From: Enterobacteria phage KhF2
Sequence record: KT184314.1
Length of the DNA: 64,000 nt
Strand: one strand, 5' to 3'
Below are positions 25,075 through 25,854 of the stretch, piece by piece; positions within the stretch are counted from its first letter, which is position 1, and the number at the start of each line of letters is the position of its first letter. The notes beneath the pieces are model-generated. The model searched no databases and was not told the origin of the DNA. It saw nothing but the letters and a program-made list of their open reading frames with translations. A program made the position numbers and the translations under genes.

Positions 25075-25347
25075 TTACTTCCTCGTTTTGAGAACTGCTA
25101 AGATTTCTTTAGAGTCTGGTAAGAACCATGTGTAGTGATTCTCTTTGATTTCTGGATGAGTGTCAACCTTTATTTTGCACTCTTTACCAACATGCTTAAG
25201 CTGTGCTGTGATACCTTGCATAAAGATGTGACACATTACATTATCCATAATCGTAGGTAAGAAATCAATCCTCATGTAAGTATCTTTCGGTCTCGGTAGA
25301 AGTAAGTAACCTTCTGTGTAGAAAGTTTCATCATTACTTTGTGTCAT
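25075..25347 (-). CDS. hypothetical protein
   Basis: ORF track. Confidence 0.45.
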   Translation of the reverse strand: MTQSNDETFYTEGYLLLPRPKDTYMRIDFLPTIMDNVMCHIFMQGITAQLKHVGKECKIKVDTHPEIKENHYTWFLPDSKEILAVLKTRK

Positions 25348-25613
25348 TACTGCTTATTCCCTAATAAAATCATATCAATAAGGTTATTAGCTTTGATTGT
25401 GCACTGGTAAAATCCATCACGATAGAACTCAAGGGCTGCTGCCACATCACTACCAGTATTACCTTTGATAGTAAATCTTGAATCTTCTTGAGTGTACTTA
25501 TCACTCTCACTTACTTGGGAGTTTTTGAATGTACTGTTCACTTTGTTCGTTGAACACCCTGACATAATTATCAGTAACACAAACATTATAAAACTCTGGC
25601 TTAGTTTTTTCAT
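25347..25613 (-). CDS. putative o-spanin (outer-membrane lipoprotein), overlapping the 3' end of the upstream gene in another frame
   Basis: Signal peptide plus lipobox (LLIIMSGC); 107 nt out-of-frame overlap with 25507..25854, as in Rz/Rz1-type spanin pairs. Confidence 0.45.
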   Translation of the reverse strand: MKKLSQSFIMFVLLIIMSGCSTNKVNSTFKNSQVSESDKYTQEDSRFTIKGNTGSDVAAALEFYRDGFYQCTIKANNLIDMILLGNKQ

Positions 25614-25854
25614 ACGTTAGTACCTCTTTTGTGTGCTTATTCTTAGCAAGCACATCTTTCAAATCATTTTTGTAATTGGTGCTGAGTGTGGCTAAACCTT
25701 CCTGATAAGCATCTTTGGCAACACTTATTAGTTTCTCATTATTTAGCTCAGTTTCAGCAACTTGGTAGTCTCTGTAAGAGTATCCTCCCCAGACACCTGT
25801 CCCAACTAAGAAAACAATTATGAAAGTAGCTTGACAGAACTCTTTAAATGTCAT
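25507..25854 (-). CDS. putative i-spanin (N-terminal TM helix, charged helical periplasmic domain)
   Basis: TM segment FIIVFLVGTGVWGGYSY followed by a Glu/Lys-rich region; architecture only. Confidence 0.45.
   Translation of the reverse strand: MTFKEFCQATFIIVFLVGTGVWGGYSYRDYQVAETELNNEKLISVAKDAYQEGLATLSTNYKNDLKDVLAKNKHTKEVLTYEKTKPEFYNVCVTDNYVRVFNEQSEQYIQKLPSK

Follow-up and report, generated by a model that had tools for sequence, protein, structure and literature searches.

A probable two-component spanin encoded by overlapping genes in the early-type region of a Felix O1-like myophage

Organization of the overlapping gene pair

The DNA analysed here, hereafter the window, is a 64,000-nucleotide stretch of Enterobacteria phage KhF2 (record KT184314.1). 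[quoted passage not shown] The original prediction had described open reading frames of 115 and 88 residues sharing 107 nt, with the strand left unstated; the coordinates were reproduced exactly and both frames lie on the minus strand. The o-spanin gene starts 241 nt from the i-spanin start, an offset that places the two genes in different frames, and runs 160 nt beyond the i-spanin stop codon. The second gene thus starts inside the first and ends beyond it, so that, of the "embedded/overlapped Rz/Rz1 architecture" foreseen at the outset, the overlapped form applies and the embedded form does not.

The AGGAG site preceding the i-spanin gene is also listed for Felix01 in the supplement of Kongari 2018 (PMC6139136), and the records of phages Mijalis and Paul annotate a ribosome-binding site at the place equivalent to the AGAGG site of the o-spanin gene. 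A plus-strand terminator-like hairpin within the overlap (25503..25522) runs antisense to all genes here and was treated as a chance structure.

Table 1. Coordinates of the spanin genes, their signals and other features of the window
Feature	Position	Strand	Basis
i-spanin gene, 115 aa, ATG start	25507..25854	-	ORF list, PHROG 1152
o-spanin gene, 88-aa precursor, 69-aa predicted mature outer-membrane lipoprotein	25347..25613	-	ORF list, PHROG 4180
Dual-coding overlap, 107 nt: i-spanin codons 81-115 and o-spanin codons 1-35	25507..25613	-	ORF coordinates
Shine-Dalgarno sequence AGGAG, i-spanin gene	25863..25867	-	8 nt before first ATG
Shine-Dalgarno sequence AGAGG, o-spanin gene, within the i-spanin coding sequence	25623..25627	-	9 nt before ATG
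Single hydrophobic transmembrane segment ATFIIVFLVGTGVWGGY, i-spanin codons about 9-25	25780..25830	-	Kyte-Doolittle
Lipoprotein signal peptide, o-spanin residues 1-19, and Cys20 codon (25554..25556); lipobox I-M-S-G-C	25554..25613	-	PROSITE-type rule
Intrinsic-terminator-like hairpin, AGGCTCC-TTCG-GGAGCCT and T tract, adjoining the i-spanin ribosome-binding site on its 5' side	25868..25895	-	Sequence
Macro-domain gene downstream of the spanin genes	23565..24350	-	phiEa21-4 homologue annotated Tk.4
Endolysin, 154 aa, lysozyme type	9475..9939	+	97% identical to heid "lysin"; PHROG 7 endolysin, E 4e-58
Annotated holin, 3' part, cut by the window end	63748..>64000	-	100% identical to residues 40-123 of heid_107 "holin"

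By sequence comparison the window is assigned to a Felixounavirus (Felix O1-like myophage) genome. Over the 3 kb around the pair, identity reaches 99.7% with Enterobacteria phage KhF1 and 98.8% with Escherichia phage heid, and at least 80% of this stretch is covered in 244 phage records, nearly all of them Felixounavirus. The window also holds 23 tRNA genes clustered at 705..4931 on the minus strand, including two each for tRNA-Met, tRNA-Gln and tRNA-Lys and three for tRNA-Leu; a comparable tRNA cluster is annotated in heid.

The upstream gene encodes a predicted type II inner-membrane protein

We took the features of the two-component spanin class from the criteria of Summer 2007 and Kongari 2018. 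An o-spanin gene that is embedded in, overlaps or adjoins the i-spanin gene belongs among them, and the 107-nt overlap has counterparts in the relatives from which both genes were extracted. The i-spanin begins MTFKEFCQATFIIVFLVGTGVWGGYSY… and contains one hydrophobic segment near residues 6-25, where the Kyte-Doolittle 19-residue mean peaks at 1.62 (residues 6-24); the same scan of the 115 residues returned no second hydrophobic window. The N-terminus with Lys4 is assigned to the inside; just beyond the segment the protein carries a net acidic charge, and its remainder is charged and hydrophilic (12 Lys, 10 Glu, 5 Asp). Hydrophobicity and charges together predict a single N-terminal transmembrane helix with N-in/C-out topology and a periplasmic domain. 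All i-spanin homologue sequences compared have a hydrophobic N-terminus, and all keep the periplasmic Cys92. The "Rz-like spanin" family PHROG 1152 matches the full length of the protein (residues 1-115, E 1.4e-41).

The single N-terminal hydrophobic segment, a predicted membrane helix, and the charged character expected of this protein were confirmed, whereas the expected helical body is partly supported. The periplasmic domain of the Felix01 i-spanin is tabulated with 66% helix and 10% strand, and Pepcoil gives zero coiled-coil regions for it (Kongari 2018, PMC6139136). Our single-sequence AlphaFold model places helices at about residues 27-72, then short strands and a C-terminal helix, and that of the o-spanin has a long C-terminal helix; with pLDDT values of 52.6 and 56.7, both models are of low confidence and give a weak hint of secondary structure only. 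At that low confidence, the conserved C-terminal Cys motif of the i-spanin may lie in a small strand-plus-helix region, and the conserved C-terminal region of the o-spanin, with its single conserved Cys, may be helical.

The downstream gene encodes a predicted outer-membrane lipoprotein

The 88-residue o-spanin begins MKKLSQSFIMFVLLIIMSGC, and its signal peptide is MKKLSQSFIMFVLLIIMSG, followed by CST. We applied a PROSITE PS51257-type rule, which asks for Lys or Arg in the first seven residues, six uncharged residues and a lipobox ending in Cys; the o-spanin conforms to it (MFVLLIIMSGC, lipobox I-M-S-G-C, Cys20, Lys2/Lys3), as do eight homologues from five phage groups, and the lipoprotein gene with lipobox LLIIMSGC of the original prediction thus stands. 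The GenBank note on the Paul homologue gives a LipoP SpII score of 18. In the Lol pathway of E. coli, a residue other than Asp at position +2 leads to outer-membrane sorting. The o-spanin has Ser-Thr at +2/+3 and so does not carry the Asp+2 inner-membrane retention signal.

PHROG 4180 matches the o-spanin over residues 1-88 (E 2.2e-50); the protein also matches PHROG 2425 (E 2e-9) and, weakly, PHROG 456 "Rz-like spanin" (E 8e-5). Neither PHROG 4180 nor PHROG 2425 has a functional label, and NCBIfam gave only weak matches, to N-terminal lipoprotein signal regions. The mature part is free of proline, and its Cys71 is kept in all homologues compared. Kongari 2018 tabulates 20% helix and 16% strand for the Felix01 o-spanin (PMC6139136). 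Pfam returned no match, spanin or other, for either protein, and PADLOC and a PDB sequence search returned no informative match for either.

The start of the o-spanin gene is often misplaced in public records. Four GenBank annotations begin at an internal Met, which strips the signal peptide and lipobox although the full-length lipoprotein frame is intact in each: heid_49 (L001:3648-3866), mistaenkt_24 (L013:1105-1311), Sf14 gp046 (L014:1114-1308) and SarahDanielle_54 (L007:1468-1984); SarahDanielle_53 is the i-spanin, yet is labelled "putative o-spanin". Gene-calling programs systematically overlook o-spanin genes of the overlapped type or give them a wrong start (Kongari 2018, PMC6139136), and the Felixounavirus reported with only an i-spanin annotated (PMC8300805) may present the same problem.

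Both reading frames are under purifying selection

Off-frame ORFs are abundant in the AT-rich DNA of the window, and a lone off-frame ORF of 88 residues is unremarkable; it is conservation that lifts the o-spanin above chance. We compared the window pair with seven relatives at 72-99% nucleotide identity (heid, typing phage 1, JLBYU32, Felix O1, mistaenkt, Mijalis and Sf14). Outside the overlap, the i-spanin gene has dN/dS values of 0.05-0.17 in its own frame, as against about 0.6-2.6 in the two alternative frames; the corresponding values for the o-spanin gene are 0.06-0.16 and 0.7-9. Across the eight phages, the o-spanin frame contains no stop codon, whereas the other frames contain 2-11. 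Nucleotide identity to the relatives is 0.88-0.99 within the 107-nt overlap and 0.72-0.95 in the flanks, as expected of dual coding. These results show that both ORFs are genuine protein-coding genes under purifying selection in both frames, and they speak directly to the doubt, raised beforehand, as to whether the downstream ORF is translated.

The pair belongs to the Felix O1/JH2 family

The tblastn matches of the i-spanin come from 402 phage records, those of the o-spanin from 312. The i-spanin is 100% identical to the copy in Felixounavirus LF82P9, and the o-spanin is 100% identical to a gene of Shigella phage JK55 that is annotated as o-spanin. In GenBank, heid_50 is annotated as i-spanin (RefSeq name "Rz-like spanin") and heid_49 as o-spanin; i-spanin homologues are likewise annotated in ekra, BPS17L1 and Mijalis, and the two labels occur in many records, some of them Center for Phage Technology genomes whose annotation cites LipoP and TMpred.

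The arrangement is kept in Felixounavirus, Mooglevirus, Suspvirus, a Hafnia phage, Kolesnikvirus and the podovirus genus Kuravirus. The distant homologues (26-38% identity) come from the Hafnia Ounavirinae phage, Erwinia phages of the phiEa21-4 type (Kolesnikvirus), related Salmonella phages and phiEco32-like Kuravirus (Paul, ECBP2, KBNP1711), and even at 26-34% identity the Erwinia, Hafnia and Kuravirus phages retain the full signal peptide and lipobox. Among the phages from which we extracted both genes, the overlap is 107 nt in Mijalis and Felix O1, 116 nt in Paul and 137 nt in phiEa21-4. The extracted representatives share the i-spanin motif EKTK..F.N.C..D.Y..FNE, with one periplasmic Cys, and an o-spanin lipobox [ST][GA]C-ST together with the motif LE[FW]Y.D....C....N.L[IL], which includes the conserved Cys. 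All i-spanins fall in PHROG 1152, and the o-spanins are split between PHROG 4180 and PHROG 2425, with weak matches to PHROG 456.

The pair of Felix O1 (ORF20/ORF21, NC_005282 p014; JH2 families, SpaninDB) consists of the same genes as that of the window. Direct comparison shows that 3 of the 115 i-spanin residues differ and that the o-spanins are 95.5% identical; the overlap of 107 nt, the ribosome-binding site, and the upstream 159-aa PHROG 2267 gene and polynucleotide kinase gene (pnk) are common to both phages, and the differences amount to a few substitutions and an o-spanin C-terminus shorter by one residue, with nothing structural. The supplement of Kongari 2018 lists Felix01 as "ovl", at 5330-5678 / 5571-5841 with an overlap of 107, and places it in both JH2 families, namely an i-spanin family of 15 members (including PhiEco32, ECBP2, Moogle, Mushroom, UAB_phi87 and wV8) and an o-spanin family of 11 (PMC6139136). 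The window pair is thus a member of an already-described family and is known down to its 107-nt overlap. Calling it a spanin-like pair, an i-spanin-like protein with an o-spanin-like partner, agrees with the PHROG 1152 match, the GenBank annotation and the Felix01 listing.

The pair of Kuravirus Paul (gp036/gp035) is a more distant likeness. Its i-spanin, about 33% identical to that of the window, is in PHROG 1152 and the JH2 i-spanin family, its genes are overlapped, and they lie between an upstream terminator hairpin and a downstream macro-domain gene. Paul is, however, a podovirus, and its o-spanin belongs to PHROG 2425 rather than 4180 and to a separate Kongari family; unlike that of the window, the mature o-spanin has three prolines and two extra cysteines.

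A conserved terminator and macro-domain neighbourhood

The hairpin of the window is a strong one, and a GC-rich hairpin occupies the corresponding position upstream of the i-spanin start in Mooglevirus, Suspvirus, the Hafnia phage, phiEa21-4 and Paul (extracted loci L006, L007, L008, L009 and L013). The stem sequence differs in the Hafnia phage, phiEa21-4 and Paul, the Sf14 hairpin does not have the 5' arm, and the records of Mijalis, phiEa21-4 and Paul label the element a terminator. On the other side, the macro-domain gene lies immediately downstream of the o-spanin gene in phiEa21-4 (L009:1784-2566; 45% identity) and in Paul (L008:1966-2406; 25%, E 1e-8). This suggests a spanin and macro-domain module common to myoviruses and podoviruses. 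The gene upstream of the i-spanin gene in the window (PHROG 2267) has no similarity to the corresponding upstream gene in Paul.

In the window, a small ORF at 24351..24641 (minus strand) carries CxxC … CxxC motifs (…FCKDCSIEMFG…ICEGCGC…), and its product may be a zinc-binding protein; a similar sequence lies downstream of the spanin genes of the Hafnia phage (L007, frame 1).

The lysis genes are scattered

The spanin pair has early-type neighbours (pnk, rIIA/B, macro domain) and comes immediately after the terminator; it is not part of a late lysis cassette. Endolysin and annotated holin are both far away, on opposite strands, the holin beginning about 38 kb from the pair; the holin gene family, PHROG 4038, has no assigned function, and the holin call is one of annotation only. 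The scattering of lysis genes that the original prediction made contingent on the pair being spanins is therefore present, and it is published for Felix O1-like phages (Moogle genome paper, PMC4319497). The accompanying statement that no holin or endolysin is adjacent holds for these two genes; two genes upstream of the pair, however, lies a candidate cell-wall enzyme, a putative lysin with an SLT match.

This candidate (27056..27604, minus strand) is a 182-residue protein of PHROG 600. It has a signal peptide at its N-terminus and matches the SLT lytic-transglycosylase domain weakly (Pfam E 9e-4, short of the gathering score). The Felix O1 record relates it to a protein of the T4 vs-regB intergenic region, and some records call it "putative lysin". 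Its gene lies just downstream of rIIB, and its 3' end overlaps the start of pnk by 23 nt. About 450 nt downstream of the endolysin gene, an ORF at 10382..10771 (plus strand) is annotated in heid as "D-alanyl-D-alanine carboxypeptidase"; PHROG 4348 gives no function for it, and it is possibly a second cell-wall-active gene near the endolysin.

Comparison with the lambda and T4 spanins

Like the window pair, lambda Rz/Rz1 consists of a type II inner-membrane protein and an outer-membrane lipoprotein encoded by shared DNA in different frames, and the presumed function, disruption of the outer membrane at the end of lysis, is common to both. The lambda Rz1 gene is fully embedded in Rz within a holin-endolysin-spanin cassette, whereas the window pair is overlapped and has no such cassette. 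Two coiled-coil domains are present in Rz, and 10 of the 40 residues of Rz1 are prolines (PMC6139136); in contrast, the mature o-spanin of the window is proline-free and no coiled coil is predicted. Membership of the lambda Rz/Rz1 sequence family was rejected on these grounds (0 prolines, 0 Pepcoil regions in Felix01, overlapped and not embedded) and for want of a Pfam match.

T4 PseT.3/PseT.2 are proteins of the same types and similar sizes (117 and 99 aa), and their o-spanin is likewise not proline-rich. In both phages the spanin genes lie beside the polynucleotide kinase gene in the early region, far from the holin and endolysin genes, but the T4 genes have a "separated" architecture, and pnk is downstream of them in T4 and upstream in the window. 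Although pseT.3/pseT.2 lie far from t and e in T4, they can substitute for defective lambda Rz/Rz1, and at least one periplasmic Cys, available for homotypic intermolecular disulfides, is a general spanin feature (Kongari 2018, PMC6139136). The number of periplasmic cysteines is zero in PseT.3 and two in PseT.2, whereas the window proteins have one each (i-spanin Cys92, o-spanin Cys71). The T4 family was considered given the shared pnk neighbourhood and was rejected: BLASTP gave E values of 0.95 and 0.038, the latter for the signal peptide only, and the T4 spanins belong to PHROGs 739/812 and not 1152/4180.

Discussion

We conclude that this Felix O1-like myophage probably encodes a true two-component spanin, with its two genes overlapped (probability of about 0.9), a reading drawn from the combined targeting signals, architecture and conservation. 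Gene structure, targeting signals, purifying selection on each of the two frames, membership of the family and the scattering of the lysis genes are direct observations on this locus and its relatives. Complex formation, membrane fusion and a role in lysis are what we infer by analogy with studied spanins.

The upstream gene would yield a type II inner-membrane i-spanin with an N-terminal anchor and a periplasmic C-terminal domain, and the o-spanin would be translated from its own ribosome-binding site inside the i-spanin gene. The o-spanin precursor would be lipidated on Cys20 and cut by signal peptidase II; as its +2 residue is Ser and not Asp, Lol would carry it to the outer membrane. If lambda Rz/Rz1 and T4 PseT.3/PseT.2 are a guide, the periplasmic domains would bind via their C-terminal regions, and the conserved C-terminal motifs of the two proteins are compatible with an interface in the proposed complex. 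The complex would bridge the periplasm, restrained by the peptidoglycan; when the holin and endolysin, encoded elsewhere, destroy the wall, it would fuse or disrupt the outer membrane and so finish lysis.

Several observations count against a spanin function: the proteins show no detectable similarity to the tested T4 spanins and no Pfam match, the o-spanin is proline-free where lambda Rz1 depends on its proline-rich region, Pepcoil finds no coiled coil, the location is early-type and the models have low pLDDT. Some of these points would also fit a real inner-membrane protein and a real outer-membrane lipoprotein whose main role is not lysis, for example early superinfection exclusion or receptor masking, the type of phage lipoprotein exemplified by T5 Llp and Cor. 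In favour of such a role, the pair lies in an early-type block with pnk, rIIA/rIIB and the macro-domain gene, far from endolysin and holin, PHROGs 4180 and 2425 carry no functional label, and our literature search found no experimental test of any JH2-type (PHROG 1152 with 4180/2425) spanin. Exclusion lipoproteins are, however, typically single genes, whereas the o-spanin has a membrane-anchored partner that is strictly co-inherited, and overlapped, in very different phages; the functional spanins of T4, next to pseT, are just as distant from t and e; and no other spanin candidate is annotated in the genome, nor did PADLOC give any match. We regard a non-lysis role as improbable.

The abundance of off-frame ORFs in AT-rich phage DNA, the several GenBank records that omit the o-spanin ORF or start it at an internal Met, and the Felixounavirus with an i-spanin alone (PMC8300805) would all be expected if the downstream ORF were merely a chance open frame in and after the i-spanin gene and were not translated. 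The gaps in annotation have a ready explanation in the habit of gene callers noted above, and the low own-frame dN/dS, the zero stop codons in eight phages, the dedicated Shine-Dalgarno sequence and the complete signal peptide and lipobox retained in Erwinia, Hafnia and Kuravirus phages all oppose it. The conservation data effectively refute this explanation.

Within the spanin reading, it is conceivable, if doubtful, that the Felix O1/phiEa21-4/phiEco32-type family is a mechanistically distinct kind of spanin, characterized by a short i-spanin with no predicted coiled coil, a proline-free o-spanin in the Felix O1 type, and an early-region module of terminator, i-spanin, o-spanin and macro-domain gene common to myoviruses and podoviruses. 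In that case the pair would be expressed from its early-type region, perhaps via terminator read-through, which would set its dose. A variant in which the pair is not primarily a lysis device is less likely.

The discovery value of the locus is small, as publications and GenBank already document the pair with its 107-nt overlap, the family to which it belongs and the scattered lysis layout. Of practical use is the annotation of the Felixounavirus o-spanin, which is often absent from records or mis-started and whose correct start here is the ATG at 25613; Felixounaviruses are widely used in Salmonella and E. coli biocontrol. The residual interest lies in a coiled-coil-poor spanin family with proline-free Felix O1-type o-spanins and in the conserved terminator-spanin-macro-domain module. 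If the family is indeed a distinct kind of spanin, these phages would disrupt the outer membrane without the lambda-style fusion mechanism based on coiled coils and a proline-rich region.
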